From contig JBLNDE010000050.1 of the NCBI GenBank assembly GCA_050261335.1, positions 7,435 through 71,434 on the forward strand: a DNA stretch of 64,000 nucleotides, in the 5' to 3' direction. Below are positions 6,106 to 57,766 of the stretch, in pieces; within the stretch, counting starts at the first letter, position 1, and each line of letters starts with the position of its first letter. The stretch is from Bacillota bacterium. GTDB taxonomy: Bacteria > Bacillota > SHA-98 > UBA4971. The position numbers were made by a program, and so were the translations under genes. Under the pieces are notes generated by a model, which did no database searches, was not told the DNA's origin, and was given only the letters and a program-made list of their open reading frames with translations.

Positions 6106-6127
6106 CTTATCAAGGAGCGTGGACTAA

Positions 6128-6265
6128 GTGGCCAACAAGAGACAGACCAGTTGTAAGGTCGCCAAGAAAGCTTCAAAGATCCTAAAGGACGATCGCTTCA
6201 GCGATGATGCAAAGTCCGTCGCCGGGAGCGCCCTCGCACAAACCAAGAAAGGTAAGGGCAAGTAG
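6128..6265 (+). CDS. Small Lys-rich protein (45 aa: VANKRQTSCKVAKKASKILKDDRFSDDAKSVAGSALAQTKKGKGK)
   Basis: GTG at 6128 with AAGGAG 10 nt upstream. Below the 60-aa cutoff of the ORF track. Its stop is 1 nt from the stop of the convergent ORF 6267-6560. Confidence 0.4.
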   Translation: MANKRQTSCKVAKKASKILKDDRFSDDAKSVAGSALAQTKKGKGK

Positions 6266-6266
6266 G

Positions 6267-26681: not shown

Positions 26682-26720
26682 GGGTTCGTTAGTCCCTCCC
26701 AGTCTGCCAACATCTGGCGG

Positions 26721-26833
26721 GTTGCCGGCGTTGCACTCGGGGACGGTGCCCCAAGTGTGGCGCGCTTCGCCGAAATTCGGCCCGTCTGGCTAGGCAGCCG
26801 GATTTTGACACCCCTCGTGCAATCACCGGCAAC
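26721..26833. repeat. Palindromic intergenic element, copy A (full, 113 bp)
   Basis: Terminal inverted repeats GTTGCCGGCGTTGCAC / GTGCAATCACCGGCAAC. Its reverse complement matches copy C (54696-54807) along its whole length. Lies inside the operon, between the binding-protein and ATPase genes. Confidence 0.85.
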
Positions 26834-26917
26834 CCCTCCCAAGAGCCGAGAGCATTTCTGCACTCTCACTTGGGAAATAGCTGAGAGGTTCACACTCAGG
26901 GCGGGAGGCCTCACCTG

Positions 26918-35398: not shown

Positions 35399-36775
35399 TT
35401 AGCCGAGAGCCTCACTTATCGCCCTGGCGACATCCCCGACGACCTGTTCCAAGCTCGCGCGGTCAGGTCCCTCACCGAGCACCCTGACGAGGGGCTCGGT
35501 GCCGGACGGCCGCACGAATATCCTGCCATCGTCGCCGAGGCGTTCGGTGGCGCGGGCAACAGCCTCATCAATGGCCCGGTTACCGGAGAGCCCGTTCTTG
35601 TCGCGGACTCTCACGTTTACGAGCACCTGCGGGAAGGTCTGCATCCAGGAGGCCAGCGCCGAGAGAGGCTGCATCGTCTCGCGGACCACGCAAAGGAGCG
35701 CAAGCGCCGTGATGGCTCCGTCCCCGGTCGTGCTGCGGTCGAGGAAGATGATGTGGCCGGATTGCTCGCCTCCGAGGATGATGCCCGTCCTGCGCATCTC
35801 CTCCAGCACGTAACGGTCGCCGGCCTTCGTGAGGACCACGGACCCGCCCTCGCGCTCGAAGGCTTTCACCAATCCAAGATTGCTGTAGACGGTAGCCACG
35901 ATCGAGTTGCGGGGGAGCTTTCCCTGGCGAAGGAGATGAAGCCCGCATATAGCCATGATGTGGTCGCCGTCGACCACCCGACCCCTCTCATCGACGGCGA
36001 TGAGCCTGTCAGCGTCGCCGTCGTGTGCAAGGCCGATGTCAGCCCCTGCCTCCACCACGGCCCGCGAGACGGCCTCCGGGTGGGTCGAACCGCAGCCCAC
36101 GTTTATGTTCGTGCCGTCAGGCGCGTCGCTCATGGCGACAACGTCGGCGCCGAGCTCCCTCAACAGCCTTGGGGTGCACGCAAATGCCGCGCCGTTCGCG
36201 CAGTCCACGACGATCTTGAGCCCTTCCAGCGTAACATCGCAGGTGCGTTTCACAAACTCCACGTATCTATCCTGAGCGTCAGTGATATCCAGTGATCGTC
36301 CCACGTCGCACCCTGTGGGTCTCGGCAGGCCGTCTTCCGGTTCGGACCGCACGTTGCCTGCACCGTCGAGGACGCGCCGCTCTATCTCTACCTCCTCCTC
36401 ATCGGATAGCTTGAAGCCGTCACGAGAGAAGAACTTGATGCCGTTGTACTCGACGGGGTTGTGCGAAGCGGAGATGACGGCCCCGGCGTCGGCCTCGAGG
36501 CTGCGCACGAGATAGGCCACGCCGGGCGTTGGCACCACCCCCACACGCAGCACGCGCGTTCCGACGGACATCATACCAGCCGCCAGGGCCGCCTCGAGCA
36601 TATCCCCGGAAAGCCTCGTGTCCCGGCCGATGACGATCGCGGGGGCGCCGTCCCTTGTGCTCCGTTTCGAGGCGACCACCGCGGCGCCCGCTCGCCCGAG
36701 CCTGAACGCAAGCTCAGGAGAAAGCGCGCCGTTGGCGATCTCACGCACCCCGTCTGTGCCGAACAGTCTTCCCAT
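35399..36775 (-). CDS. glmM: Phosphoglucosamine mutase
   Basis: MGRLFGTDGVR N-terminus and phosphoserine loop SASHNP. ATG at 36775 preceded by GGGAGGAC. Confidence 0.93.
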   Translation of the reverse strand: MGRLFGTDGVREIANGALSPELAFRLGRAGAAVVASKRSTRDGAPAIVIGRDTRLSGDMLEAALAAGMMSVGTRVLRVGVVPTPGVAYLVRSLEADAGAVISASHNPVEYNGIKFFSRDGFKLSDEEEVEIERRVLDGAGNVRSEPEDGLPRPTGCDVGRSLDITDAQDRYVEFVKRTCDVTLEGLKIVVDCANGAAFACTPRLLRELGADVVAMSDAPDGTNINVGCGSTHPEAVSRAVVEAGADIGLAHDGDADRLIAVDERGRVVDGDHIMAICGLHLLRQGKLPRNSIVATVYSNLGLVKAFEREGGSVVLTKAGDRYVLEEMRRTGIILGGEQSGHIIFLDRSTTGDGAITALALLCVVRETMQPLSALASWMQTFPQVLVNVRVRDKNGLSGNRAIDEAVARATERLGDDGRIFVRPSGTEPLVRVLGEGPDRASLEQVVGDVARAISEALG

Positions 36776-36843
36776 CCACTCTGTCCTCCCGGTCTCTCGC
36801 AAATCGTCCGCCAATCGTTAATGAACGGTCAGTTGATGAACGC

Positions 36844-37734
36844 TCAATAGAGACTCTCGGTCTTCTTGAGATTCGGCTGCACAGGTGCCTTACCAGGCGT
36901 CGACCCGGGGGCAGACGCACCGCCCGCGCTGTTACCGGTACCGGCATCGGAGCCGGAGCCCCCGCCAGTGGAGGAAGCGCCGCCACCGGCCGGTCCTGAT
37001 GCGCCGGATACACCCTGCCCGGCCGCGCCCGCGCCGGCCCCCCCGCTCCCCGTAGCTGAAGGCGCAAGTTGCGCCCTCGCCTGCACCGGGACGGTGATGC
37101 GAGCCGACGCCGGATACGCGCTCACGCCCTCGACCTGGCTGCCGCTGCCGTCGACGGGGACCACCGCCACGTCCCGCGAGACCCCGGCTGCAACCCCTGA
37201 GATGTCTATCTGGGCGAGCGCGCTCCTCACCGCCTCCACCCTGCTCCTTGGCCCAGCTATCGTCACTGACCTCGGCGTGGAGCCTGGCTGCAAGGGGACA
37301 TAGCCGTCGCTCGGAAATCCCACGAGAGCCACGACCACAGGCATGTCCCGTCCGATGACAGCCTCAACGGTCACGCTCGTGCTCGACGGCATTATCTCCA
37401 TGACCTGGACGCCGTCGGGCGCCGAGGCCTGAACCCTCACGCCGTGCTCGCCTTCCCCGCGCCCCGCTACAGACACGAACGCTCTGACCCTGGACCCGTC
37501 GAGCGGCTCCACCACATGCCTGGGCCCGCGCACGCGGACTTCCACATCTTTGGGTTTCGCGGTGATTATGAGGTTCGGGGCCACCCCGCGAACCTCCATG
37601 CCAACCGTGATGATCTTCTCGACGGTGTCCCCTTGCGTGCGCCTGATGTCGGCACCCGCCACGAACCATACAACGATTGCGAGAAGCAGCGCTGCTATTC
37701 GCAGGTGCAGGTCGCGCGCAACGGGCAACTTCAT
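36844..37734 (-). CDS. cdaR: CdaA regulatory protein CdaR (YbbR-domain protein) with a Gly/Ser/Ala-rich tail
   Basis: N-terminal TM helix, then YbbR-like repeats. Its ATG overlaps the cdaA stop (ATGA at 37731-37734). Confidence 0.82.
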   Translation of the reverse strand: MKLPVARDLHLRIAALLLAIVVWFVAGADIRRTQGDTVEKIITVGMEVRGVAPNLIITAKPKDVEVRVRGPRHVVEPLDGSRVRAFVSVAGRGEGEHGVRVQASAPDGVQVMEIMPSSTSVTVEAVIGRDMPVVVALVGFPSDGYVPLQPGSTPRSVTIAGPRSRVEAVRSALAQIDISGVAAGVSRDVAVVPVDGSGSQVEGVSAYPASARITVPVQARAQLAPSATGSGGAGAGAAGQGVSGASGPAGGGASSTGGGSGSDAGTGNSAGGASAPGSTPGKAPVQPNLKKTESLY

Positions 37735-38582
37735 GTCGCATGCCCCCTCAGCCACCCGGGGATGCCCTGCCTGACGCGGCCGGGTTCCAGCAACTCCCCG
37801 AGCTTATCCCTCAGGGCACCCTCGTCGAGGTAGCGCGTGAGCTTGCCGTTAAGCGCCAGTGAGATGACCCCTGTCTCCTCGGAAACGATCACGACCACCG
37901 CATCAGACTGCTCCGTGAGACCCAGTGCAGCCCTGTGCCTCGTCCCGAGCCTCTTGCTTACGGCCGGGTTCTCCGTGAGAGGCAGGTAACATCCTGCCGC
38001 GACGATCCTGTTCCCCTTGATGATGACGGCGCCGTCGTGAAGAGGCGAGTTGGGCGTGAATATGTTGGCGAGGAGTTCCGCTGACACCACGCCGTCGATC
38101 TTCGTCCCGGTCTCCATGAGTTCGGCGACGCCGGTCTCACGCTCGATCACGATGAGCGCACCGACCTTGTCCCGGGCCATCATCGCCGCCGCCCGTGCGA
38201 CGTCGGAGATGAGCCTCGCGGCATCCTCCTTGCCGAGAAACCCGAGAGGGCCTGCGAAAAGGCCTCCGCGGCCGATCTGCTCCAGTGCCCTGCGCAGTTC
38301 TGGCATGAAGACTATGGGCAGCGCCACAAACAGCAGGGTGATGGTCTTCTGCAACAACCAGTATACGGTCCGCAGGCCCAGGAGGTTACTGACCATCGTG
38401 GCTACAAACAGAATGGCGATGCCTTTCAGTAGAGACACCGCCCTCGTTCCCCGGATGATCACGAGTATTTTATAGATGACGTACGCCACGATGAGGATAT
38501 CTGCTACCGCGCTGACAGCCTGCCTGGCATTTATCTTGGCAAGGTCCTCAACGAACCTTGCCAGGCTGATGTCGAACGGCAT
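37731..38582 (-). CDS. cdaA: Diadenylate cyclase CdaA
   Basis: Three N-terminal TM helices and a DAC domain with the HDGAVII and GTRHRAA motifs. ATG at 38582 preceded by GGGGGAGG. Confidence 0.92.
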   Translation of the reverse strand: MPFDISLARFVEDLAKINARQAVSAVADILIVAYVIYKILVIIRGTRAVSLLKGIAILFVATMVSNLLGLRTVYWLLQKTITLLFVALPIVFMPELRRALEQIGRGGLFAGPLGFLGKEDAARLISDVARAAAMMARDKVGALIVIERETGVAELMETGTKIDGVVSAELLANIFTPNSPLHDGAVIIKGNRIVAAGCYLPLTENPAVSKRLGTRHRAALGLTEQSDAVVVIVSEETGVISLALNGKLTRYLDEGALRDKLGELLEPGRVRQGIPGWLRGHAT

Positions 38583-38631
38583 GGGCCTCCCCCTCGGCTC
38601 CGGTCCTGCTTGCAGCCTCCGCCACAACTAT

Positions 38632-38660
38632 ATACTATACATTTGTCCGCGCTCGCGCAA
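38632..38660 (-). promoter_or_regulatory. Candidate promoter of the cdaA operon (TTGCGC-17-TAGTAT)
   Basis: Read on the minus strand: the -35 is the complement of 38655-38660 and the -10 is the complement of 38632-38637. Confidence 0.35.
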
Positions 38661-38757
38661 GGCTCGTTGGCTGGTATTGCACGGTACCGGCTCGAGGAAA
38701 GTCCCCGGCCGGGTGTTGACCTCATGATATCCATCGCGACAAACGAGCAAACGCGAC

Positions 38758-38782
38758 GCGACCGGCACCGGATGCCGGTCGC
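38758..38782 (-). terminator. Intrinsic terminator-like hairpin downstream of the ApgM-type gene
   Basis: GCGACCGGCA-ccgga-TGCCGGTCGC (10-bp perfect stem), followed on the minus strand by GTCGCGTTTGCTCGTTTG. Confidence 0.55.
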
Positions 38783-38797
38783 GAGAGCGCTCGCAGG

Positions 38798-40036
38798 CTA
38801 CGCTCCGAACTTGGCCAGCTTGAGAGCGTGCGCCATCGCCAGAGGGAGGGCGCCGAGGGACGGGAACGTCCCGAGCGACCCGCCCGCGCAGGCCGTCTCG
38901 CCAAAACCCGCGATGCGGTCAGGCCTCACCCACTTGGAGTGGATGAGGAAAGGCACCGGGTGCCAGCTATGGGCCTTGAGAGTGGCGGGGGTGGAGTGGT
39001 CCCCGGTCACCACCAGCACGTCGGGCTCAAGTTCCAGAATGGCGGGGAGGCTCCGGTCGAAGGCTTCGAGCACCTCCACCTTGCGGGCGAAATTGCCGTC
39101 CTCCCCCGCGCTGTCTGTGTCCTTGACGTGGAGGTAGAAGAAATCGAACTTTCCGAAGTTCTCACGGAGGGTTGCTACCTCATCCTCCATGGTAGCACCG
39201 GTCTCCAGGATCTCCATGCCCAGCAACCTCGCCACGCCGCGATACATCGGATAGGTGGCGATGGCTGCCGGGGTGAGTTTGAATGTCTCCGACATGGTCG
39301 GTATGTCGGGGTGCTTCGCGAAACCTCGGAGCAGAATCATGTTCGCGGGATGCTGGTCGCGCAACACCTGCGTCGCCCTGTCGAGCCATTGATTGATGAT
39401 CGCCGCCGTGCGTTTGGCTTCGGGGGCACGCGGGACGGCTGGCTTCGGCCGCTCGCCCACATGCTGCGGGTCGGTGTCCTCGATGTCCCCTGAGAGCCCC
39501 TCGCCCCGGAACACCGCAACGAACCTGTGCAGCTTGCCGGGCTCGAGGATCACGTCCGCGCCGTCCACGCGGATCTCGCGAAGCATGTTGACGAGCTCTC
39601 GGTTCTTCTCCGTCGGAATCCTCCCGGCACGCCTGTCGGTGATGACGCCGGACTCGTCCACGGTGCAGAAGTTCCCGCGGGCGGCAACGTCGGTACGCTG
39701 CAGCTCCAGCCCGACCCCGAGGGCCTCGAGAACGCCCCGGCCTATCTCATACTTCAGAGGATCGTACCCAAAGAGCGCGAGGTGCGACGGCCCGCTACCC
39801 GGGGTGATCCCTATCCCCACCGGCTCCACCAACCCGCAACTGGACCTGGCCGCAAGAGCGTCCAGGTTCGGTGTGCTGGCCGACTCGAGGGCGGTGCGCC
39901 CTGTGTCGGTATGGGGAAGACCTCCCAGGCCGTCCACTACAGCCATGACGATCCTGGAGTCGGTCTTCTCCGCGAGGGCTCTGATGACTTCGATGTGTAC
40001 CACTTTGACATCTCTCCTTCTGCCAGGGTCTAACAA
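38798..40036 (-). CDS. Cofactor-independent phosphoglycerate mutase family protein (ApgM-type metalloenzyme)
   Basis: VVDGLGG...TPNLDALA...GSGPSHLALFGYDP...VVTGDHSTP motifs of the alkaline-phosphatase-superfamily mutases. Confidence 0.78.
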   Translation of the reverse strand: MLDPGRRRDVKVVHIEVIRALAEKTDSRIVMAVVDGLGGLPHTDTGRTALESASTPNLDALAARSSCGLVEPVGIGITPGSGPSHLALFGYDPLKYEIGRGVLEALGVGLELQRTDVAARGNFCTVDESGVITDRRAGRIPTEKNRELVNMLREIRVDGADVILEPGKLHRFVAVFRGEGLSGDIEDTDPQHVGERPKPAVPRAPEAKRTAAIINQWLDRATQVLRDQHPANMILLRGFAKHPDIPTMSETFKLTPAAIATYPMYRGVARLLGMEILETGATMEDEVATLRENFGKFDFFYLHVKDTDSAGEDGNFARKVEVLEAFDRSLPAILELEPDVLVVTGDHSTPATLKAHSWHPVPFLIHSKWVRPDRIAGFGETACAGGSLGTFPSLGALPLAMAHALKLAKFGA

Positions 40037-40141
40037 CTACGTACCAATCTACGGGTCATTCTATACGCGTCACGCTTTTCCTCCTCGGAACGCGGGGACA
40101 TACTAAGTGCGGGTTCAGAAACCACCGCCACTTTTCCAGGG

Positions 40142-40200
40142 GTTGCCGGTGTTGTACTCCGGGGACGGCGCTTGCGGCGCGCCTCGTCAGATTCGGCGCT
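40142..40200. repeat. Palindromic intergenic element, copy D (partial)
   Basis: GTTGCCGGTGTTGTACTCCGGGGACGGCGC... aligns with the first ~60 nt of copy A (same orientation, about 27/30 at the start). Lies upstream of the PBP1A gene. Confidence 0.6.
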
Positions 40201-40283
40201 CGAGGTCAGGCGGATCGAGGGCGCTCAATCGTACAAGAGCCTGTCCCTGATTCGCCGCCGAACGGGCGAACGCCGATGAACCT

Positions 40284-42464
40284 GTGCCTGAAGTCCAGGC
40301 CGGGGCGAGACCGACCGATGGCTCCAGGCGCGTCATTTCACCTGGCGGGAGCGAGGCGTGGGGTTTGCACGGAGGGCGCGGGCGGCCCGAAGACCGCGGG
40401 CAGTGCGAAAAGCGCGGGCAGCAAGACCGGCACGGACGGCAGGAGCAGCACGGGCGACGCGGCCGGCATGAGCAGGAGGACGCGGGTGTCCAGGGCGGCC
40501 CCTCGGGCATTCGCGCCCGCTGGCGTTCGGCCGTGTTCACGGTCGCTGGCGTGGTCCTGGTCGCCTTTGCCCTTGTGCGCATCTTCCCGATACCCGGCAA
40601 GCAGATCGGAAGCGTGTTCTACGACATCCATGGCGAGGCCATCACGTCGACCGTTGCGGGCAATCGCGTCCAGGTGCCACTCTCGGCCATCGCGCCCCGT
40701 CTGCGCGAGGCGGTCATCGCCGTGGAGGACGAGCGCTTCTACAAGCATCCAGGCATCGATCCCGTCAGCATCGCAAGGGCCCTCGTGCGGAACATCCGGG
40801 CAGGACGTATCGTGGAGGGCGGCAGCACCATAACCCAGCAGCTTGCCAAGAACATGTTCCTGCCTCCGGAGCGAACCGTCGGGCGTAAGGTGGCAGAGCT
40901 CTTCCTCACGATTTACCTGGAGCTCAAGTTTTCAAAGGACGAGATCCTCGAGCGGTACCTCAACCTCGTGTACCTGGGGCACGGGGCGTACGGGGTCGAA
41001 GCCGGGGCGCGCCTCTACTTCGGAAAGAGCGCCGCGGATGTCTCCCTTGGAGAAGCCACGATGCTTGCAGGTCTCACCAGGGGACCTTTCTACTACTCCC
41101 CGTACAGGAACATGAGCGCCGCCCTCGCCAGACGCAGGGTCGTGCTGGGCAGAATGGTTTCGGCGGGATACCTTACGAAGGCCCAGGCGGAGGCCGCGGC
41201 CCGGGAACCGCTCAAGCTCGTGGGGATCGGCGCCCGCGAGATCAGGGCAGCGCCTTACTTCGTGGACTACGTCATGGAGGAGATCCTGCGCCGCCTCGGC
41301 GACGGCGGGAACCTGCTATACTCGGGCGGACTGAAGGTATACACCACCCTTGACATGTCCATGCAAAGGGCAGCGGAGAAGGCGTTCGGAGAGGGGCTTG
41401 ACGCACTCACCCCCGGGACGCCTCCTGACCAGGTCATCCAGCCCCAGGGAGCACTGGTCGCCATCGACCCGAGGAACGGCCACGTGCGTGCGCTCATCGG
41501 AGGGAGAAGCTTTCACGAGACCCAATTCAACAGGGCGATCCACGCGAGGAGGCAGCCCGGCTCAGCATTCAAGCCGTTTTTCTATGCCGCGGCGCTGGAC
41601 AGCGGTTTCACGGCGGCGACCACCCTCACCTGCGAGCCGCTGACGTTCTGGTCGACAGGAGTCCCCTATACCCCGACCGACTACGGACGCTTCGACTATC
41701 ACCTCCGCCCGCTCACGCTGCGGGAAGCGCTCGTGGTCTCATGCAACGTGGTCTCGGTTCGCCTCGCGAGCATCATAGCGCCTGAAAAGGGAGCGGAGTA
41801 CGCAAGGCAATTCGGCATCAAGAGCCCGCTGCGCCCCAACCTTTCGCTCGTCCTCGGGACGTCAGAGGTGACGCCGCTGGAGATGGCTGCGGCATTCGCT
41901 CCTTTCGCCAACGGGGGAAAGCGCGTAGAGCCCGTGTTCATCGTGTCGGTCAAGGACAAGTACGGCCGCGAGCTCTTGCGTGACCGCCCCCGGGTAAGGC
42001 AGGTACTCGACCCCAGAACTGCGTTCATTGTTACCGACATCCTCAAGCAGGTCATAAGCCGCTGGGGAACGGCCGGGACCATAGCGGGAAAGGTGAAGCG
42101 CCCGGCAGCAGGGAAGACCGGGTCGACGCAGAACTACACCGACGCCTGGTTCGTGGGATACACCCCGGACCTCGTGTGCTCGGTGTACGTGGCGTACGAC
42201 GACCCTGCCACCCCCCTCGGAAGGTCGGGCGCGGTCGCCGCTGCACCTATATGGGCCGACTTCATGAGGGAAGCGCTGGCGGGAAAGCCCCCCGCCACGT
42301 TTCGGAGGCCGCCCGGGATAGTGGCGCGCGAGATCTGCCATGAAACCGGGTGCCTTGCCACCACGGGATGCCCCGACACCCGGTGGGAGCTGTTCAAGAC
42401 GGAGGCTGTGCCCACTGAAACGTGCCCCTGGCACGGCGGCGCGGCGCCGGTAATCGGGAGGTGA
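40284..42464 (+). CDS. Class A penicillin-binding protein (PBP1A: transglycosylase + transpeptidase); start uncertain
   Basis: GT51 motifs EDERFYKHPG and GGSTITQQ. Transpeptidase motifs SAFKP, SCN and KTGST. The basic N-terminal ~70 aa precede the single TM helix. Confidence 0.88.
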   Translation: MPEVQAGARPTDGSRRVISPGGSEAWGLHGGRGRPEDRGQCEKRGQQDRHGRQEQHGRRGRHEQEDAGVQGGPSGIRARWRSAVFTVAGVVLVAFALVRIFPIPGKQIGSVFYDIHGEAITSTVAGNRVQVPLSAIAPRLREAVIAVEDERFYKHPGIDPVSIARALVRNIRAGRIVEGGSTITQQLAKNMFLPPERTVGRKVAELFLTIYLELKFSKDEILERYLNLVYLGHGAYGVEAGARLYFGKSAADVSLGEATMLAGLTRGPFYYSPYRNMSAALARRRVVLGRMVSAGYLTKAQAEAAAREPLKLVGIGAREIRAAPYFVDYVMEEILRRLGDGGNLLYSGGLKVYTTLDMSMQRAAEKAFGEGLDALTPGTPPDQVIQPQGALVAIDPRNGHVRALIGGRSFHETQFNRAIHARRQPGSAFKPFFYAAALDSGFTAATTLTCEPLTFWSTGVPYTPTDYGRFDYHLRPLTLREALVVSCNVVSVRLASIIAPEKGAEYARQFGIKSPLRPNLSLVLGTSEVTPLEMAAAFAPFANGGKRVEPVFIVSVKDKYGRELLRDRPRVRQVLDPRTAFIVTDILKQVISRWGTAGTIAGKVKRPAAGKTGSTQNYTDAWFVGYTPDLVCSVYVAYDDPATPLGRSGAVAAAPIWADFMREALAGKPPATFRRPPGIVAREICHETGCLATTGCPDTRWELFKTEAVPTETCPWHGGAAPVIGR

Positions 42465-42838
42465 CGTGCATCACCGGTCACGGCCCTACCCGTTCCCGAC
42501 GTCACACGTACCAGGGGACGGGTGACCTACGTCACCCGTCAGGCTCTTCCCGTTCCGTATCTCACGCATCAGGAGCCAATCGGTGACGTACATCATCGTT
42601 CCCGCCTTACCCGTTCCCTCTGTCACGGGTTCCCCACGAAGCGTTCCGTACGTCACCTGTTGAAGCTGCATCAGTGACGCACATCACAGGTTCCTCCTGG
42701 GCTGTTCCATACGCCACGCGTCCTCCAGGAATCGTTCCGCACGTCACTCGTCGAAACGGGACGAGTGACCCATATCACCATTCGTGGCTTACCCGTTCTC
42801 TGCATCAGCGGTCCTCCGCGAAGCGTTCCGCACGTCAC
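42461..42838 (+). repeat. Phased array of 13 copies of GT(G/T)(A/C)-N6-TCAC (30/31-bp spacing, 91-bp super-period)
   Basis: Motif starts at 42461, 42492, 42522, 42552, 42583, 42613, 42643, 42674, 42704, 42734, 42765, 42795 and 42825. It fills the gap between two convergent stop codons. Confidence 0.85.
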
Positions 42839-43647
42839 TCGTCCAACACGAACCTTGCTATGGCCTCCGCCACCCCGTTGCCGTCTTCCCCTCGAGCGAC
42901 GTAGTCAGCGGCCTTCTTCACCTCGTCGGCGGCATTCCCGACCGCAACCCCAACCCCTGCGAATTCCAGCATCGATATGTCGTTCTCGCTGTCGCCCAGG
43001 GCCATCACCTCGCTGCGCGCAACGCCCAGATACCGCGAGAGAATGTCGAGAGCTGACCCCTTCGATACCTCCGCCGCGGTGAACTCTACGTAACGCGGCA
43101 TGGAGCGGACCACGTGGAGACGGTCGCCGAAGCGCGCCTTGAACTCGGGCAGACGTCGGTCCGTGTCCTCCTTCGAGGCGGTGATTATCAGAAGCTTCGT
43201 GGGGGCACGGTCAACGAAGGCGGTGAGGTCGCCGACGGCGACGGCCCCCACCTTCGCATGCGCCATATACGAAAGGGCCTCCTCGTCGTACCGTTCGACA
43301 TACAGGGTATCGTCCATGTAAACGTTGAGGTGAAGGCCCTCCTGCCGTGCGTAGGCCACGACGTCCTTTGCGTGCTTCAGGGGCATGGGCCTGTGGCTTA
43401 TGACCTCGTGCGTCCTCGCCGTCTTGATGAGTGCCCCATCATACGTGATGAGCGGGGCATCGAGCCCGAGATCCTCCGCAAAGGGCGCGGTGGCCCGGAA
43501 CATGCGCCCGCTTGCAAGAGTCACAACGCAGCCTGCCGCTGCTGCAGCCCCGATGGCCGCTCGCGTGCATTCGCTGATCTTCAGATCGCTTCCTATGAGA
43601 GTGAAATCGACGTCGATTGCGACAAGCCTTACTCCGATCTCAACCAC
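42835..43647 (-). CDS. Cof-type HAD-IIB phosphatase
   Basis: N-terminal AIDVDFTL (DxD-type nucleophile motif) and C-terminal GDSENDISML...GVAVGNA. Confidence 0.85.
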   Translation of the reverse strand: MVEIGVRLVAIDVDFTLIGSDLKISECTRAAIGAAAAAGCVVTLASGRMFRATAPFAEDLGLDAPLITYDGALIKTARTHEVISHRPMPLKHAKDVVAYARQEGLHLNVYMDDTLYVERYDEEALSYMAHAKVGAVAVGDLTAFVDRAPTKLLIITASKEDTDRRLPEFKARFGDRLHVVRSMPRYVEFTAAEVSKGSALDILSRYLGVARSEVMALGDSENDISMLEFAGVGVAVGNAADEVKKAADYVARGEDGNGVAEAIARFVLDE

Positions 43648-43717
43648 CCCACCTGGGGCGGGCCGCCCGTTGCGTTCCGGCCCCCATTCATGCCATGGCG
43701 CGTCGTCTGGTCGTCTC

Positions 43718-44080
43718 CTATTCGCTGGACCTGTCGCGCACCAGGAAACTTAGAATGCTGCTACCGACGGAAAGCAAGATGGAAGCGAGGACAGCAGGCC
43801 AGAAGCCTGCTATATGGAAGCCCCCCACCAGCTTCGCAACGAGCCACAGCATGAGCCCGTTGATTATGAAAGTGAAAAGCCCGAGCGTGAGCACCTGGAT
43901 GGGAAGCGACAGGATGATGAGGACCGGCCGTATCAGGGCGTTGACGATGCCGAGCACGAACGCGGCGACGAGCGCCGGTATAACGCCGGTCACCTCGACG
44001 GCCGGCCCCATGATGAACGGAAGCAGGAGCAATATCACTGCATTGATGAGGCATCGCGTCAGGAACCCGTGTCCTCTCAA
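43718..44080 (-). CDS. Phage-holin-family 4-TMS membrane protein (YvlD-like)
   Basis: LINAVILLLLP...LGIVNALIRPVLIILSLPIQVLTLGLFTFIINGLMLWL matches the Phage_holin_4_2 pattern. The TTG start at 44078-44080 is preceded by GGAAAGGGGGA. The long track ORF upstream is not supported. Confidence 0.8.
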   Translation of the reverse strand: MRGHGFLTRCLINAVILLLLPFIMGPAVEVTGVIPALVAAFVLGIVNALIRPVLIILSLPIQVLTLGLFTFIINGLMLWLVAKLVGGFHIAGFWPAVLASILLSVGSSILSFLVRDRSSE

Positions 44081-44141
44081 CGTTCTCGTCCCCCTTTCCT
44101 GGTGCGACCTGAGTAGATCGCCGCCAATTCGAGCTACTCTT

Positions 44142-44256
44142 GAGCGCGCAAGTCCCGTCCTGCGAGCCGGCCAGCCAGATTCTCGACGCCCCAGCGTGCA
44201 AGCGCCGGCAAGCCCAACACCGTCAGGAGAAGCGGCGCAAACCTGTGGCGCCATAC
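44142..44256. repeat. Palindromic intergenic element, copy B (diverged, left half; inverted relative to copy C)
   Basis: The reverse complement of 44142-44256 aligns with 54652 to about 54770, including the extra arm GTATGGCGCCA.GGTTTGCGCC...CCTGACGGTGTTGGG. Confidence 0.7.
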
Positions 44257-44814: not shown

Positions 44815-45172
44815 AGACTTCCACCTTCGCCTGGTCGCTATCGACGTCCACGATCTTGCCCATCGTGGCATCGGTGATGCTCGCAAGGATCTCATCCAGG
44901 TCGATGTCCTGTTCCCTGATCTCGGCAGCCACGTCCTTCGGTATGAACTTCATGGCCACCTTCGCAAGGGCGAGCGGGATATTCACGTTCACCTTGGTGT
45001 TGTCCTCGGCGTCGAAGACGCGCACCCGCAGCATCCTGGCGGGCCGGCCCGCCCCCGCCCCGGGCTGGCCCGGGGACGAGCTCTCCAGGGCTTCGAGCAG
45101 CTTCAGCCCCTCGTCCACGGAGATCTTGCCCTCACGAACCATCGCCAGTATCTGTCTCTTTTCATCGATCAT
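44804..45172 (-). CDS. SHOCT-like domain small protein (122 aa)
   Basis: MIDEKRQILAMVREGKISVDEGLKLLEALE N-terminus. ATG at 45172 preceded by GAGGAGGG. The track ORF is longer but overlaps the upstream gene by 167 nt. Confidence 0.65.
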   Translation of the reverse strand: MIDEKRQILAMVREGKISVDEGLKLLEALESSSPGQPGAGAGRPARMLRVRVFDAEDNTKVNVNIPLALAKVAMKFIPKDVAAEIREQDIDLDEILASITDATMGKIVDVDSDQAKVEVYVE

Positions 45173-46793
45173 CGTGATCGCCCTCCTCGTCATTCGTGGG
45201 GAATCCGGTCGCCTGGTGATGATGGCCTTGCGCCCCCGGCTCCGACGCACCCGGGGTGCCCGGGGCATCCGGCACACTCGGCGTACCCGGCTCACCTGGC
45301 GAATGGAGCCGGCCCTGCCCTGCGGCATCGGGGCCCGCCCCAGTGATGGTTATGGAGCCGTTCGACGTCTCCGCTTTGATCCTGAGCCTGTCGGCGTTTG
45401 TCTCGTACGCGGCGGTCGAGGCCACAATCTCCTTGTGTCCCATTGACCTCGTGTTCACCTCGTATGTGAGATTCGGCAGATCGACGTGAATACCTCCATG
45501 CGACGTCTCAGCCTCTATAGAATAGCCGACGTCTTCAGCGGTGGCAAGCTGCACCTCTATGGACCCGTTGGACGTTTCGAGCTCGTACACGGCGTCGCCT
45601 GTCGGCCTTGCGGGGGCCACGAGGATACTCCCGTTGGAGGTCTCTGCGACGAGCCTCTTTGCGGGCCCCCTGCACTGGATGCGGCCGTTCGCGGTCTCCA
45701 GCTCAGCGGTGACGACGCTCGCCCCGTCGAGAGTGATTCGACCGTTGGACGTCTTCACGTCGATGGTGCCGCAGTCCAGGGCGCCGATTTCCACCTTCCC
45801 GTTGGACGTCTCCAGGTCCAGATCATACCGGAACCCTCGCGGAAGTTGAATCGCAAGCGCTGCCCCGCTCACCACGTTCTCGCCGCTGCAGTCGATCCTG
45901 AGCCGGTCAGGTGTGGCCTCATACTCGATGGCCTCCTCCAGCCGGGCCCTGGTGACACCGGGGTCGCTCGCCGCGCCCCTGACGCGCGCGCGGACCTCCA
46001 CGCGGAAGCCCGGGCCGTCCCACGGCTCAATGGTGATGCCGCCGTTGGACGTGGTAGCATCCACGTTCACCTTCTCGAGCTGCGCGTCGAAGGTACCCTC
46101 GAAGGCCCTCTCCACCCTCACGCCCGGGGCGAGGACGCTGAGGAACGGCTCAGTGAAAGCCTCCACCCAGTCCGGCGCTTCACCCCACCTGGAGCGCCGG
46201 CGGGCCTTCCCGGAGAGTTCCTCGCCGAGCTTCTCCGCAACGCGTTCCTTCTCGCGCATGGCGCGCTCGAGGGCGCGCTGCTTCTCCCTCATCGCCGCCT
46301 CCACCGTCTTCTCGATGCGCTCTGCGAGGCTCTCGAGCGCCGGGCCGTAAGAGGTCTCAGCAAGATGCGCCAATCTGTCAGCGAGGGCGCGGATCTTGGC
46401 GAAATCCGGCCCGCGGCTGCAGGTTTCGCGCTCGCTGCCGCCCCCCGTGCCCTCGTTGCCCGCCGCTGTCGCGGCATCCCCGGCGTCAGCACCAGTGCCG
46501 GCGCCAGCGCCGGCGTATGAGCCCGTGTCTCGAGCGCCGGCACAGGCCGTATCCTCCGCGCTGCCCGCGACGCGCTCGCCGGGTGCAGCGGCGCCTCGTC
46601 GCTGGCCATCGGGCTCCCCGGCTTGCCCGAAGGCCTCGCCGCCAGGCCCCTGCCGGGCCTCGCCGCCTTCCCCCGGCGCGCCCTCCCCAGGCTCCACCGC
46701 CTCGTTCAGGGCCTCGATGAGGGCTGCGGCCTCTTCGCTCGTGATCTTCCCTTCTTCGAGCATCTTCAGGATCATCATGTGCTCTTCCAGCAC
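45162..46793 (-). CDS. SHOCT-like N-terminus + long low-complexity linker + DUF4097-type beta-helical domain (YvlB/LiaG-like)
   Basis: MMILKMLEEGKITSEEAAALIEALNE, then repeated ETSNG(S/R)I strands typical of DUF4097. GTG at 46793 preceded by GAGAGGAGGGG. Confidence 0.75.
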   Translation of the reverse strand: MLEEHMMILKMLEEGKITSEEAAALIEALNEAVEPGEGAPGEGGEARQGPGGEAFGQAGEPDGQRRGAAAPGERVAGSAEDTACAGARDTGSYAGAGAGTGADAGDAATAAGNEGTGGGSERETCSRGPDFAKIRALADRLAHLAETSYGPALESLAERIEKTVEAAMREKQRALERAMREKERVAEKLGEELSGKARRRSRWGEAPDWVEAFTEPFLSVLAPGVRVERAFEGTFDAQLEKVNVDATTSNGGITIEPWDGPGFRVEVRARVRGAASDPGVTRARLEEAIEYEATPDRLRIDCSGENVVSGAALAIQLPRGFRYDLDLETSNGKVEIGALDCGTIDVKTSNGRITLDGASVVTAELETANGRIQCRGPAKRLVAETSNGSILVAPARPTGDAVYELETSNGSIEVQLATAEDVGYSIEAETSHGGIHVDLPNLTYEVNTRSMGHKEIVASTAAYETNADRLRIKAETSNGSITITGAGPDAAGQGRLHSPGEPGTPSVPDAPGTPGASEPGAQGHHHQATGFPTNDEEGDHDDR

Positions 46794-46830
46794 GATGTCC
46801 CCTCCTCTCGGGTTGCCGGTTGACAGAACA

Positions 46831-47214
46831 TCACCGCTGCTTGAGAAGCTTGATCGCTTCCTCCGCAGGGATCTCACCCTTCGCAAGCAGGTCCAGGATG
46901 CCCTTACGCTTTACTGCGGTCTGTGCTTCGTCCTCCTTCTCGCGCTCCACAGGGTAGCCGAGGGCCTGGATGATCGCATCAAGCCGGCCTCGGACTGTAG
47001 GATATGACACGCCGAGTTCCCTCTCCACTTCCTTGATGTTGCCGCGGGACTTGATGAAGATCTCGACGAAGTCCTTCTGCTCGTTGGAGAGCTGACAGAA
47101 CTTGCACGTCTCGAAGCGGCCTTCTATGGATGTCTCGCACCTCGGACACGACAGCTTCGTCACGTCCAGGGCTTCCCCGCATACAGGACATCTGCCCAGC
47201 GCCCTTCGTCTCAT
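46831..47214 (-). CDS. DUF2089-family zinc-ribbon + HTH protein (putative transcription factor)
   Basis: CPVCGEALDVTKLSCPRCETSIEGRF..C.FC zinc ribbon, followed by FIKSRGNIKEVERELGVSYPTVRGRLD. Confidence 0.8.
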   Translation of the reverse strand: MRRRALGRCPVCGEALDVTKLSCPRCETSIEGRFETCKFCQLSNEQKDFVEIFIKSRGNIKEVERELGVSYPTVRGRLDAIIQALGYPVEREKEDEAQTAVKRKGILDLLAKGEIPAEEAIKLLKQR

Positions 47215-52723: not shown

Positions 52724-54651
52724 GTGACCAGACGCGCAGCAGGGGGTCGCCGGGCGTGCCTGCTGCGGCCGGGGGCGCGAGGGAGAGCCTTCAGGAGAGG
52801 GTGAAGGACCTCCCTGACAGGCCCGGGGTTTACATCATGAAAGACGCCTCGGGCCGCGTCATCTACGTCGGCAAGGCGTCGTCCCTCCGGAACAGGGTGC
52901 GCTCGTATTTCCAGTCGCCCGAGGGTCTCGCCGGCCGCACGCGAGCGCTCGTCGCGCACATCGCCGATTTCGAGTACGTGGTCACCGACTCCGAGGTCGA
53001 AGCGCTCATCCTCGAGAACACCCTCATCAAACGGCACCGGCCACGATACAACGTCCGTCTCAGAGACGACAAGACTTACCCGTTCATCAAGGTGACCCTG
53101 GCGGAGCCGTTCCCGAGGGTGATCGTCACCCGGAGGGTGGACCGGGACGGGTCGCGTTACTTCGGCCCTTACCCCAACGTGAGCGGCATGCGCGACACTC
53201 TCGCCTTTCTGAAGCGGCTTTTCCCAGTGCGCGGATGTTCGAAGAAGATCACCGAGGAGTCGCGAGAGCGTCCGTGCCTCAACTACCATATCGGAAAGTG
53301 CCCGGGCGCGTGCGCAGGCGCGATAACGCGCGAGGCGTACGCCGAGATCGTGAAGCAGATCGTCCTGTTCCTGGAAGGCCGCCAGGACCGGCTCGTCCGG
53401 GAAATGAAGAGGAGCATGCAGGCAGCATCGGACCTCCTGGACTTCGAAGCCGCGGCGGCGCTCCGCGACAGGATACGGGCCATGGAACGGGTCATGGAGC
53501 GCCAGAAGATGGTGCTCGAGTCGCGACAGGACATCGACGTAATAGGGTTCGCGCGGGACGAGGACGGGGCAGAAGCCTGCGTGCAGGTGTTCTTCGTTCG
53601 CGGCGGCAAGCTCGTGGGGCGCGAGCGGTTCTTCATGGCGAATTCCGACGGCACGCCCGACGCCGAGATGGTCGCTGCCTTCATCAAGCAGTACTACGCG
53701 GCGGCCTCGTTCGTGCCCCGCGAGGTCGTGGTGCAGGCCAGCCTCGTCGCTGACGACGCCGACTCCGTCGCCTCATGGCTCGGCGCCCTTCGGGGCTCGA
53801 AGGTGCGCATCACCGTGCCCCAGCGTGGGGAAAAGAAGCGCCTCGTGGACATGGTGCGCGATAACGCCAGGCTTGGCCTCGAGGAGGCCCGGCTCCGCGC
53901 CATGCGCGCCGCTGAGATGGAAGGCGGCGCTCTCGCAGAGCTTCAGGAAGCGCTGGGGCTCCCCAGGCTGCCACGCAGAATAGAGGCGTTCGACATATCG
54001 ACCATCCAGGGGACCGATGCGGTCGGGTCGATGGTGGTGTTCGAGAGCGGACGTCCGCTCAAATCCGCATACAAGCGGTTCAGAATCAGGACCGTGGAGG
54101 GGCAGGACGACTTCGCGATGATGCGCGAGGTGGTTGGGAGGCGATGCCGGAGAGCGCTGCACGAAGGGCAGGAGCGGCATGAGGGGCACGAGAGTCGGGA
54201 GCAGCCGGGCGCAGTGCCTGACCTGATGCTGATCGACGGCGGAAAGGGCCAGCTCAACGCGGCCCTCGAGGCGCTGCGGGAGTGCGGCCTGGCCGAGAAG
54301 GTGCCAGCCGCCGGCCTTGCCAAGGAGCAGGAGCTCGTCTTCCTCGAGAACAGGCCCGACCCCATCGCCCTGCCGAGGGACTCGAAGGCCCTCTTTCTCC
54401 TCCAGCGCGTGCGCGACGAGGCCCACAGGTTCGCCGTGTCCTACCATCGCCAGCTCCGGACGAAGCGCGCAACCCTGTCCATGCTCGAGGAGATTCCCGG
54501 CATCGGGGAAAAGCGTCTCAAGGCCCTCATCACGGCATTCCGCTCAGTGCGCGCCATGCGAGAGGCGAGCGTCGAGGACCTGGCGAAGGTCCCCGGCATG
54601 ACGCGCAGCGCCGCCGCGCGGGTGAAAGAAGCCCTGGGCTCGTCGCCCTAA
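52717..54651 (+). CDS. uvrC: Excinuclease ABC subunit C
   Basis: GIY-YIG (GVYIMKD...VIYVGKA...RVRSYF), UVR domain and C-terminal (HhH)2. The ATG at 52717 overlaps the uvrA stop (ATGCTGA). Confidence 0.93.
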
Positions 54652-54816
54652 GTATGGCGCCATGGGTTTGCGCCATCTTCCCTGACGGTGTTGGGGTTGC
54701 CGGTGATTGCACGAGGGGTGTCAAAATCCGGCCACTGGCCAGACGGGCCGGATTTTGGCGAAGCGCGCCCCGCTTGGGGCGCCGTCCCCGAGTGCAACAC
54801 CGGCAACACCGGCAAC
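54652..54816. repeat. Palindromic intergenic element, copy C (extra left arm 54652-54695, 112-bp core 54696-54807, 9-nt tail duplication)
   Basis: The core has TIRs GTTGCCGGTGATTGCAC / GTGCAACACCGGCAAC and an internal 12-bp inverted repeat CAAAATCCGGCC / GGCCGGATTTTG. The left arm contains the hairpin ATGGCGC-N9-GCGCCAT. Confidence 0.85.
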
Positions 54817-54983
54817 TACTGGCAATGGGGCAAGGGCTATCGCACTCTCACTTAGGGCGGGGCGTCAGGAATCTGGATACCCAGTGCACCAGATTCCAGC
54901 GAGGCGCGTCGCAAGCGCGCCGTCCCGGGCGGGCAACGCCGGCAACCCCGGCGAGGACGTACGCGCTGAAACAAGAGCTTTGC

Positions 54984-56395: not shown

Positions 56396-57766
56396 CTAAG
56401 CCGCTTTGCGCTCCTGGATCTTGGCCCTCAGGACCTCTATTGCCCTGTCAAGCTGCGTATCGCGCAGGGCGTCCTGCGACGCGCCGGCCGGAGAATCTTC
56501 CGGTTTCGGCAGGCTCACCACCACATCGGGCACTATGCCCTTCTTGTCTATGGAATGTCCCCCCGCCGTGAGATACCTCGACGTCGTGATGGAGACAGCC
56601 GAGCCGTCGGAAAGCGGATATATGGTTTGCACGAGCCCCTTGCCGAACGTGGTGACCCCGACGATGGTGGCGGCCTTCGTATCCTGCAGCGCGCCGGCGA
56701 CGATCTCCGAGGCGCTTGCGCTCACCTCGTTCACGAGCACCACCACCGGGACGGTGATCTTACGCCCGCGGCCCGAGTAGTAGGTGAGTCTGCGCCCGTC
56801 CCTGCCGACCACGTGCACCACTGGCGTCCCGGACGGAAGGAACGTGCTCGCCACCTGGATCGCCAGAGGGAAGGAGCCGCCCGGGTTATATCGCAGGTCG
56901 AGGATGAGCCCACGCATCTCCTGCTTGGCAAGGGCGTCCAGCTCCCGGTTCAAGGCATCCACGGTGTCGTCGCCGAAGAATGACGAGATCTGCACGTATC
57001 CTATGCCGCCCTCCAGCATCTCCGAGGCCACATGGGGGACCCTGATGGTGTCCCTGATGATCTTCACCTCGAAGAAGCGTGTCTTGCCGTCCTCGTCGCG
57101 CTCGATGCCGAGCATGACCTCTGTACCCTTCTTGCCCTTCATAAGGGACTGAGCGTACTCGATCGCCATGTCCTTCGTAGACTTACCGTCTATGAACTTG
57201 ATCCTGTCGAGTGGCCGCAGGCCTGCCCGCTCACCAGGCGTCCCCTTGAGCGGCGCCATGACGGTGAGCTGCCCCTCGCGAATGCCGATGTATATGCCGA
57301 TCCCATCAAAGGTGCCCCTCAGGTCGTCCGTCATGGCGCGAAACTGAGCCGGATCCATGTAGCGCGTGTACGGATCGCCGAGGACGGCGAGCATGTCAGG
57401 TATGCTGTGCTTCTCATCATAGGCTTTGAGCAGACCGGCCACGTCAACCTCTGAGACATACGCGTTCTTGAGAAGGTTGATCACCTCGAGGGCAACGAGA
57501 GCGTTCTCCTCGGCCGGCTTCGCGGGACCGTCCGAAGGGCCCGCGGGCTGCGCCTGGGCCTCTGTCTGGGCCTCTGTCTGGGCCTGCGTCCGGGCCTGGT
57601 CCTGGTCCGGGAGCTGGGACCCGGTTTGGGAGACACTCGCTGCAGGGATGTCTACCAGTGGAACGGCGCAGTCCGCCGGAGCGTGAAGCCATCCCAAGAA
57701 GCCAAGCGCCGCGACCGCCGCGAGCGCTATCAGCGAACCACACATCACGCGTTCGAATCTTCTCAT
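56396..57766 (-). CDS. ctpA: S41 carboxy-terminal processing peptidase
   Basis: PDZ plus S41 core (LILDLRYNPGGS, VLVNEVSASASEI) and a signal/anchor N-terminus. Confidence 0.88.
   Translation of the reverse strand: MRRFERVMCGSLIALAAVAALGFLGWLHAPADCAVPLVDIPAASVSQTGSQLPDQDQARTQAQTEAQTEAQAQPAGPSDGPAKPAEENALVALEVINLLKNAYVSEVDVAGLLKAYDEKHSIPDMLAVLGDPYTRYMDPAQFRAMTDDLRGTFDGIGIYIGIREGQLTVMAPLKGTPGERAGLRPLDRIKFIDGKSTKDMAIEYAQSLMKGKKGTEVMLGIERDEDGKTRFFEVKIIRDTIRVPHVASEMLEGGIGYVQISSFFGDDTVDALNRELDALAKQEMRGLILDLRYNPGGSFPLAIQVASTFLPSGTPVVHVVGRDGRRLTYYSGRGRKITVPVVVLVNEVSASASEIVAGALQDTKAATIVGVTTFGKGLVQTIYPLSDGSAVSITTSRYLTAGGHSIDKKGIVPDVVVSLPKPEDSPAGASQDALRDTQLDRAIEVLRAKIQERKAA

Follow-up and report, generated by a model that had tools for sequence, protein, structure and literature searches.

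Two convergent genes, one for a class A PBP (PBP1A; 40284..42464, + strand; Pfam PF00912 and PF00905, Transgly and Transpeptidase) and one for a HAD-family (Cof-type, Hydrolase_3) phosphatase (42835..43647, − strand; Pfam PF08282, E 1e-60), are separated by a gap that is occupied from one stop codon to the other by short, evenly spaced repeats. The locus lies in a 64-kb stretch of Bacillota DNA, referred to here as the window. It raises the question of what kind of sequence fills such a gap, how it came to fit it so exactly and whether its repeats serve as binding sites. The preliminary description had favored an array specific to this locus, of the centromere, iteron or operator kind.

Structure of the Array

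Thirteen same-strand sites were found where they had been placed, between the stop codons of the PBP1A and HAD-hydrolase genes, with starts at 42461, 42492, 42522, 42552, 42583, 42613, 42643, 42674, 42704, 42734, 42765, 42795 and 42825 (+ strand). The spacings follow the repeating 31/30/30 pattern that was originally described. Autocorrelation of the array gives peaks at lags of 30, 61, 91 (0.57 identity) and 182, and a repeat search returned three 91-nt copies with 68–70% identity, in agreement with the proposed 91-bp super-period. The relatedness between sites, put at 60–70%, extends to whole units, which are alike to this degree along the entire array. Tandem Repeats Finder did not report the array at any of the thresholds used, since the units are too diverged.

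Four of the 13 sites are exact matches to GTGA-N6-TCAC, a fifth (42583) has TCAT as its right half, and the other eight carry GTTC on the left, as had been noted. The right half TCAC of the motif as first written holds for 10 of the 13; the exceptions are 42583 (TCAT), 42704 (CCAC) and 42795 (TCAG). With up to two mismatches allowed, GTTCCGYACGTCAC has eight matches in the 64-kb window, six of which fall inside the array; 1.0 is expected by chance, and eight were reached in 0 of 100 shuffles. Every match to GTGAC-N5-TCAC in the window also falls inside the array.

Some details of the description required adjustment. The spacing of about three helical turns per site is approximate, as a period of 30.33 bp amounts to 2.89 turns at 10.5 bp per turn, or a rotation of about −40 degrees per site; the sites are in helical phase only in DNA of ~10.1 bp per turn. 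The element-derived sequence extends slightly past the ends given for the array, to ~42452–42845. The statement that no reading frame is open across the array was borne out, with no ORF of more than 61 aa contained wholly within it. No promoter-like site was found in the array, and prediction gave no intrinsic terminator for the space between the convergent PBP1A and HAD genes.

Dispersed Copies and the Full-Length Element

A strict three-site pattern taken from the window array was scanned over 596 Gb of sequence, in which ~0.3 matches are expected by chance according to our estimate. It matched 26 loci in the MAG Yes71-24 (Bacillota), one in UBA6811 and one in MAG-64. One of the Yes71-24 loci (L100) is the orthologue of the present locus, being 96% identical to window positions 36271–44192 with the array present. 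All copies are intergenic, and they lie between convergent, divergent and tandem genes, unbiased with respect to the context and orientation of the genes. In blastn, the 27 other copies align with the window from 42452 or 42459–42461 to 42716–42778 at 70–88% identity. Identity of the copies to the window array is 77–88%. As this exceeds the 60–70% likeness of the units to one another, the whole element spread after its units had diverged. An array span of 408 bp is the commonest, and variants differ from it in ~30-bp steps. The pattern scan of viral contigs gave 0 matches, and distant-mode blastn against plasmid and phage collections gave no match. A metagenome scan recovered mostly the same organism (sample Ga0067045) along with one relative at 85% identity, and no autonomous or gene-carrying form of the array element.

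The full copies of Yes71-24 are ~609 bp in length and non-coding, and are bounded by terminal inverted repeats (TIRs) that begin TAGTACTRCTYTGTCA... with TA at the tips. The body is built of 15 units that follow one another as A B A B A B A B C A B A B A B, where the A type reads GTGACGTACGTCAC and the B and C types read GTTCCnnACGTCAC. The A–B dimer measures 61 bp and the mean unit 30.3 bp, and the array takes up about three-quarters of the element. None of the six frames is open throughout, and the longest run without a stop spans 99 codons. TIRs of ~22 bp are found in 10 complete copies, and the arms and TIRs are conserved in most copies. At TIR position 8 both ends change together, with AU in five copies and GC in three. 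TA is present at each tip in eight of the 10 complete copies, as well as in short MITEs and in the related IS described below, and forms part of a palindromic tip, TAGTACTA. Transposition is what we infer, because a 2-bp TA duplication is inseparable from this palindromic tip and no empty orthologous insertion site was recovered.

The ends of the element point to its family. A 1353-bp IS (L114, 86–1438) with the ends TAGTACTACTTTGTCAGATACG codes for an IS701-family transposase of 397 aa (NF033540, E 7e-106). The right-end repeat of the MITE, TAGTACTRCTYTGTCAGATACG, matches the left end of this IS at 21 of 22 bases; the source of the IS is a Pseudomonas MAG, outside this clade. In MAG303 and AS04akNAM_80 there are 138–165-bp MITEs with matching ends and without the array. 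The shared IS701 end and these short, array-less versions thus identify the element as a MITE of IS701 type with a tandem array in its interior. A tblastn search with the L114 transposase as query against the window and all collected loci, including ~300 kb of this clade, matched only L114 itself, and a TIR scan of the genomes showed MITE forms only in this clade. A lone TIR in one locus (L117) is adjoined by ORFs that are not transposases, and an all-against-all megablast of the collected loci revealed no repeat of IS length. The literature on IS701 target duplication and on bacterial MITEs with internal arrays yielded nothing directly applicable. We know of no bacterial transposase that requires 15 internal sites in the same orientation.

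The Window Copy as a MITE Remnant

The sequence at 42452..42845 (+) is a truncated, TIR-less copy of this ~609-bp array-bearing MITE, as judged from blastn against the 27 copies, with junctions placed by alignment with the consensus and with the closest array-less relative (L001). No TIR was found in the 64-kb window. The units from 42461 to 42703 (+) are collinear with consensus units 3–10 (A B A B A B C A), with best matches of 23–29 of ~30 bases. The remainder, 42704..42855 (+), is an old internal re-duplication according to the best matches of its units and the three 91-nt repeats; its units are most like consensus 8, 9, 7 (tied with 14), 8 and 9. The stretch 42583–42673 together with 42704..42855 makes up the three 91-bp super-repeats that had been noted earlier, and a comparable extra 91-bp block is present in one of the dispersed copies (L086). 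On this alignment evidence, the window array is almost certainly a dead, end-less fragment of a lineage-specific MITE, immobile because it has no ends. The locus-specific centromere, iteron or operator array first envisaged is left without support by the presence of the same array at 25 other loci of the sister genome, by the full copies bounded by TIRs and by the lack of a ParB or Rep neighbor. This lack had itself been pointed out, and the domain search of the neighbors (PBP1A, HAD hydrolase, a holin-like protein, phosphoglycerate mutase and CdaA) agrees with it.

In the array-less relative, at 78% aa identity, the PBP and HAD genes overlap by 44 bp tail to tail. The PBP C-terminus diverges from that of the relative after ...CPWHGGAAPV, and the HAD C-terminus after ...VAEAI..FV. 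Judged from these breakpoints, the last ~4 codons of the PBP gene (V-I-G-R) and its TGA stop are element-derived, as are the last ~3 codons of the HAD gene (L-D-E) and its stop. Two circumstances account for the exact fit of the array in the gap: the insertion or later deletions cut both genes, and the array offers TGA/TCA every 30 bp, so that each flanking gene terminates at the first in-frame stop. A MITE copy would have landed in, or recombined into, the tail-to-tail PBP1A/HAD junction, after which both its ends were lost and a 91-bp block was duplicated again. Both genes would now owe their final codons and their stops to the remnant, which is probably inert locally beyond this role of spacer and stop-codon donor.

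Conserved Core Positions

Across 13 copies, unit positions 2–4, 11–13 and 18 are about ten-fold less variable than the others. This defines a core of seven positions per unit with the pattern T(G/T)(A/C)-N6-TCA-N4-T. The mean pairwise diversity is 0.031 at the 105 core columns versus 0.311 at the 253 non-CpG non-core columns (Mann–Whitney p = 7e-32), and shared variants occur at 2% of core versus 45% of non-core columns. The most constrained bases are TGA...TCA and the T five bases on, with the outer G and C less so.

Three further ideas were considered and rejected. CpG hypermutability accounts for the C-to-T and G-to-A changes at the site center, TGACGTACGTCA to TGATGTACATCA; it does not account for the conservation of the core. 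Retention of TGA and TCA as stop codons on the two strands is at odds with the equal conservation of TTC in the B sites and with that of the T at position 18. Nor is the array likely to be a multiplied terminal transposase site, as by eye only GTCA is shared with the terminal repeat.

Interpretation and Rival Explanations

The explanation that best accounts for the findings as a whole, with a probability of about 0.7, is that of a MITE remnant whose array units are putative protein-binding sites serving the spread of the element. That the array is a set of candidate binding sites is in itself an evenly balanced proposition. The earlier suggestion of such an array is favored by the conserved core and by the lack of RNA covariation, while the likeness to CRP- and Rex-type operators stands as a string match. 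Each unit would be the recognition site of a sequence-specific DNA-binding protein. The A sites are palindromic (TGAC-N4-GTCA), as would suit a dimer; the B and C sites would keep one half-site, with the other replaced by a fixed TTCC. The sites would be maintained by selection on the ability of the element to spread, and candidate binders are the transposase, an accessory factor and a host factor assembling on the element. A role in binding the transposase is a guess, because the array core is unlike the terminal repeat beyond GTCA.

One alternative is that the cell itself has taken over the MITE-borne arrays for a nucleoid-organizing, silencing, centromere-like or global-regulator protein, with the window copy still at work, for example, as a roadblock between convergent genes that have no predicted terminator between them. 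Judged from the substitution patterns, some constraint after insertion, meaning a host-level role, is conceivable. Private, and hence late, variants at core columns are about four-fold depleted (17 versus 68.6 expected), although many of these may stem from unsampled source lineages. In orthologous pairs compared in situ, core positions change at about half the rate of the others (8/153 versus 50/504), a difference short of significance (p = 0.075). Between the window array and its 96% orthologue, 7 of 378 bases differ (1.9%), compared with 3.8% in the surrounding 7.9 kb, and this end-less copy has been retained since before that split. Decayed copies persist at the orthologous loci of relatives at 92% (MAG-64) and 85% identity (UPAD01), and the latter has lost core bases in four of nine sites. 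The A site contains the GTGA-N6-TCAC core of CRP- and Rex-type operators and resembles matS (GTGAC-N3-GTCAC); against this, the absence of the motif elsewhere in the 64-kb window gives no sign of a host regulon, the copies show no preference for gene context or orientation, and their length drifts by whole units. On balance, host exaptation is unlikely. A related idea, that the element is a vehicle dispersing a ~450-bp platform of 15 protein-binding sites, with arrays, including end-less remnants, occupied in vivo, is doubtful as well, if marginally less so. If it were true, the extended nucleoprotein complexes of a dimeric protein would constitute transposon-dispersed sites for nucleoid structuring, silencing or roadblocks, a bacterial analogue of eukaryotic transposon-borne regulatory arrays.

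The array could also be a neutral satellite inside the MITE, a by-product of slippage or unequal recombination with no sequence-specific function. The number of units does vary among copies by ~30- or 91-bp steps, the array-less MITEs with the same ends indicate that the array is dispensable for this element type as such, and eukaryotic transposon–satellite hybrids are known, such as Tetris (PMC4079207). A neutral satellite should decay uniformly, yet seven of 30 positions stand out as ~10-fold less variable in all 15 diverged units, a position-specific pattern that CpG content and base identity fail to explain, and so this origin has only about one chance in ten of being correct. Smaller again is the likelihood of an RNA element. 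Its transcript would come from the element itself or belong to the flanking genes as a 3′ UTR, and would serve as a structured RNA, a protein-binding RNA or a REP/BIME-like stabilizer of mRNA. The array occupies the 3′ region of two convergent genes, and the predicted fold of each strand is more stable than that of shuffled sequence (z = −3.9 and −4.8), although a low folding energy is to be expected of repeated palindromes. The RNAalifold covariation term is unfavorable (+3.13, eight copies), compensatory pairs occur in the terminal repeats only, and the commonest A-site variant, GTGACGTACATCAC, disrupts the hairpin by a C–A mismatch. Moreover, array orientation is unbiased relative to genes, and no relevant Rfam match was obtained with the window and three full copies. 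A decayed coding repeat or a degenerate CRISPR array can practically be dismissed. A ~30-bp period is CRISPR-like, and 30 bp could encode a 10-residue repeat, but the 30/30/31 (or 61) period breaks the frame, all six frames are closed, and a check for an intact repeat-protein gene in relatives was negative, the closest one lacking any gene here. Homology links the “spacers” to each other, and they are conserved between copies, in units that are 60–70% alike, and no cas genes or domains occur among the neighbors.

Significance

For annotation, MITE remnant is the appropriate label for the region, in place of one that implies regulation or partitioning. Most MITEs of bacteria are simple sequences resembling a hairpin. 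Fifteen phased units with seven near-invariant positions each would represent unusually strong sequence selection inside a mobile element that is non-coding. Should the sites be bound by a protein, the family would provide a simple system for studying the effect of internal sites on IS701-type transposition, and also the seeding of multi-site binding arrays in bacterial chromosomes by transposons. The immediate impact is modest, given an uncultured lineage and a family restricted to a narrow clade.

Comparison with Known Systems

The element shares with IS701-family ISs and MITEs an IS701-type TIR and TA tips, and is likewise short, non-coding, dispersed and intergenic. It differs from IS701-derived MITEs in its length of ~609 bp, toward the upper end of MITE sizes, and in its phased 15-unit array, which is absent from the 138–165-bp relatives. 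The pneumococcal BOX elements are modular MITE-like repeats of the form boxA-(boxB)n-boxC, with 0–8 copies of the 45-bp boxB, and are thought to act via RNA or DNA hairpins. They too are dispersed, non-coding and intergenic, with distinct end modules and an internal tandem module of variable number. The present element, in contrast, has 15 units of ~30 bp in A/B alternation with near-invariant positions, no covariation and clear IS701-type ends.

The sopC centromere of F consists of 12 repeats of 43 bp that each contain a palindromic site for SopB, and plasmid centromere and iteron arrays in general are single loci beside the parAB or rep genes on their replicon. The array resembles these in its many same-orientation tandem repeats, its short palindrome (A sites) and its fixed spacing; unlike them, it is the body of a multi-copy transposon scattered over the chromosome (at least 26 copies) with no partner gene nearby. 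CRP/FNR operators read TGTGA-N6-TCACA, Rex-type operators TTGTGAA-N4-TTCACAA and Escherichia coli matS GTGAC-RNY-GTCAC. The A site includes the operator core noted above and has the GTGAC and GTCAC half-sites in common with matS, in which the spacer is 3 nt as opposed to 4 nt in the A site. What sets the array apart from all three is its B/C type, with TTCC replacing TGAC, to which eight of the 15 units in a full-length copy and eight of the 13 sites in the window belong. The sites are also not located at promoters, as CRP and Rex operators are, and occur in any intergenic context, 3′ ends included.

REPs are palindromes of alternating orientation that are mobilized by RAYT (REP-associated tyrosine transposase) proteins, and the STAR elements of Staphylococcus aureus have no inverted-repeat ends. 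REP/BIME and STAR sequences are, like the present family, lineage-specific, multi-copy, intergenic and built of short recurring motifs, whereas the element described here is bounded by TIRs and has all its sites in one orientation. A further parallel is Tetris of Drosophila virilis, a DNA transposon with a tandem-array interior (PMC4079207). Hybrids of this type are eukaryotic and foldback- or Helitron-like, their arrays seed satellites and position-specific constraint like that of the present units is not implied; what they have in common with the present element is a tandem repeat array carried inside a DNA transposon.

The array as part of a dispersed element

The array represents a fragment of a non-coding element that exists in multiple copies, is bounded by terminal inverted repeats and has IS701-type ends. 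As the preliminary description had it, thirteen same-strand sites lie between TGA 42462-42464 and the complement of 42835-42837, the stop codons of a class A PBP gene (Transgly + Transpeptidase) and a Hydrolase_3 HAD phosphatase gene. The 31/30/30 spacing, repeated, is borne out, as is the departure from TCAC at site 42583 (TCAT); sites 42704 (CCAC) and 42795 (TCAG) deviate as well. Helical phasing is approximate only, since the period of 30.33 bp makes 2.89 turns at 10.5 bp per turn. Self-similarity peaks at lags of 30, 61, 91 (57% identity) and 182, and a repeat search returns three 91-nt copies of 68-70% identity; the array is undetected by Tandem Repeats Finder (TRF). The sequence GTTCCGYACGTCAC (≤2 mismatches) has eight matches in the window where 1.0 would be expected; six of these fall inside the array, as does every window match to GTGAC-N5-TCAC. 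TRF short-period repeats occur elsewhere, at 45242-45301 (9 bp x 6.7 copies, inside ORF 45162-46886, a toastrack/DUF4097 protein) and at 57544-57611 (12 bp x 5 copies).

A three-site pattern, GTTCC-N5-TCAC-N16/17-GTGAC-N5-TCAC-N16/17-GTTC, was searched for in 185,579 species-representative genomes. It matched 28 loci: 26 in a single genome, Bacillota MAG Yes71-24, one in UBA6811 (99.5% identical to Yes71-24) and one in MAG-64 (~92% identical). Nothing like the array was found in the viral contigs, plasmids and phages searched. The Yes71-24 locus L100 matches window 36271-44192 at 96% identity and carries the same array, seven substitutions apart; the window thus belongs to an organism closely related to Yes71-24, whose own genome has 25 more arrays. 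The same organism is present in JGI metagenome sample Ga0067045, and in the bioreactor contig UPAD01, from an 85%-identical relative, the orthologous copy has decayed. All copies are intergenic, whether the neighbouring genes are convergent, divergent or tandem, and both orientations occur. The other arrays are 77-88% identical to window 42461-42716, whereas internal units are 60-70% identical to each other, which means that the element spread as a whole once its units were already divergent.

Anatomy of the element

Alignment with flanks revealed conserved arms outside the array, ~57 bp on the left and ~120 bp on the right, ending in the inverted repeats TAGTACTRCTYTGTCA...//...TGACARAGYAGTACTA, each of which has TA at its tip. 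The full length is exactly 609 bp in five copies, and others reach 618-763 bp through unit or block duplications. The body comprises 15 units (A B A B A B A B C A B A B A B) with a 61-bp A-B dimer as its basic period. The A unit site is a perfect palindrome, GTGACGTACGTCAC, and the B and C sites read GTTCCnnACGTCAC. The element contains no long ORF. GTCAC and TGAC motifs occur in its left arm, together with a GCCGTCA/TGACGGC hairpin.

Terminal repeat position 8 splits the eight complete aligned copies into two subfamilies (5 vs 3), TAGTACTG... paired with ...CAGTACTA and TAGTACTA... paired with ...TAGTACTA, a change at one end being matched at the other. At locus L082 (5828-5871) two elements stand tip to tip (...GCAGTACTAGTACTGC...) with a palindromic junction in common. 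At L083, a run of masked N (6076-6195) immediately left of the array makes the left arm unreadable.

A second dispersed, intergenic repeat family of ~200 bp, with inverted ends CTAAGTGAGGGT...ACCCTCACTTAG, looks like another MITE. It occurs at window 26676-26878 (-) and 54649-54862 (+) and at L085, L089, L091, L095, L097, L104 and L108. The array element is often joined by its left tip to the ...CTCACTTA end of this family, with TA in common (L097 5002, L081, L087, L091, L092, L104 and, in MAG303, L124 3535), which suggests that it strongly prefers that end as an insertion site or that the two form a composite. In UBA6811, L101 1-4773 follows the Yes71-24 locus L097 (99.5% identity) as far as the left end of the element, and 4775-6558 then follows the L104 locus (96%); the junction arose either in the genome, by recombination between two copies of the element, or in the MAG assembly, as a chimera spanning the repeat.

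The window copy and its flanking genes

Unit-by-unit comparison matches 42461-42703 to consensus units 3-10, and the units after 42703 are closest to 8, 9, 7, 8 and 9. The three copies of the 91-bp super-period noted earlier thus go back to an old re-duplication of units 7-8-9; an additional 91-bp block of similar kind is present in the L086 copy. The window copy lacks units 1-2 as well as the arm and terminal repeat of either end, and is presumably immobile and probably inert.

In L001, the nearest relative without the array, the PBP1A and HAD genes overlap by 44 bp, tail to tail. The window proteins depart from those of L001 near their C-termini, PBP1A at ...GGAAPV|IGR* and the HAD hydrolase at ...FV|LDE*, and the last codons and stop codons of both genes appear to be element sequence. 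The array offers TGA or TCA every 30 bp and shifts frame every 61 bp. Genes entering it consequently end almost at once, which accounts for the apparently exact filling of the gap in the preliminary description.

L001 (JBLNCC010000110.1) is labelled Betaproteobacteria, yet its PBP1A (78% aa identity) is the closest one outside the Yes71-24 clade and it shares the PBP1A-HAD neighbourhood, and the next-best PBP1A matches are Bacillota; its label or bin is probably wrong. In L002 (8030-8150), from a 65%-identical relative, the post-PBP1A spacer has array-like short motifs, GTGTCAC and CCCGTTCC, and after them repeated TATTCC/TAGAGC words; a different gene lies downstream.

Kinship with IS701

A scan for the terminal repeat recovered 138-bp MITEs in Bacillota MAG303 and 165-bp MITEs in AS04akNAM_80. 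Both have the same ends as the array element and no array, and their right arm, of ~50 bp, is homologous to that of the element. A Pseudomonas MAG carries a 1353-bp element (L114 86-1438) with ends TAGTACTACTTTGTCAGATACG, the left of which shares 21 of 22 bases with the right end of the array element. Its sole ORF (397 aa) is an IS701-family transposase (NF033540, E 7e-106; DDE_5). These shared ends identify the family as a MITE of the IS701 type in which an internal tandem array was either acquired or amplified. With its motifs and hairpin, the left arm is a possible source from which the array grew. No IS701 transposase was found in the ~300 kb examined from the window's clade; such an enzyme, acting in trans, would move or have moved the element.

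Constraint within the units

Across 13 copies from one genome, pairwise diversity is 0.01-0.06 at unit positions 2-4 (TGA in A units, TTC in B and C units), 11-13 (TCA) and 18 (T), the core, and 0.2-0.4 elsewhere. The mean is 0.031 in 105 core columns against 0.311 in 253 non-CpG non-core columns (p = 7e-32), a difference for which base identity fails to account. Variants common to at least two copies affect 2% of core columns and 45% of others, and private core variants number 17 against 68.6 expected. Neutral satellite decay would not yield low variability specific to the core. The site centre varies chiefly through CpG transitions (TGACGTACGTCA to TGATGTACATCA); these look compensatory, and deamination explains them as easily.

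Constraint in place was measured in orthologous pairs. Changes affect 7/62 core and 43/202 other positions between L099 and L133, and 1/91 and 7/302 between the window and L100. Pooled, core positions (8/153) are about half as changeable as others (50/504; p = 0.075), an effect far weaker than the ten-fold one between paralogues. Read most simply, these data mean that core sites matter in lineages that keep spreading, with constraint after insertion weak at most; a host-level role for these sites is also conceivable. Beside the degraded right end of the decayed L133 copy lies a ~200-bp low-complexity tract rich in CCCAC/CCCGT (~700-1000), missing from the L099 orthologue.

The array has low folding energies, which result from its repeated palindromes; the RNAalifold covariation term is unfavourable over the eight complete copies, clear paired changes occur only between the two terminal repeats, and predictions gave no promoter or terminator signal at the array. 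An RNA reading is therefore unsupported. Derivation of the core from the terminal repeat was likewise rejected, the patterns being different. Under the reading based on spread, each unit would be recognised by a sequence-specific DNA-binding protein, probably a dimer, and the sites would be maintained because they help the element to spread.

Comparison with known systems

Taken as a string, the site resembles CRP- or Rex-type operators and matS. Plasmid centromeres, one of the types named in the preliminary description, are alike in form only (sopC is an example): their defining feature is a single locus with linked genes for partition or replication, whereas the array belongs to a multi-copy element without such linkage, and that reading is not supported. 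What sets the element apart is strong, regular constraint inside non-coding mobile DNA. By its ends, the closest known kind is the IS701-derived MITE; by its architecture, it is the modular, MITE-like repeat, of which the pneumococcal BOX element, with the form A-(B)n-C, is an example.
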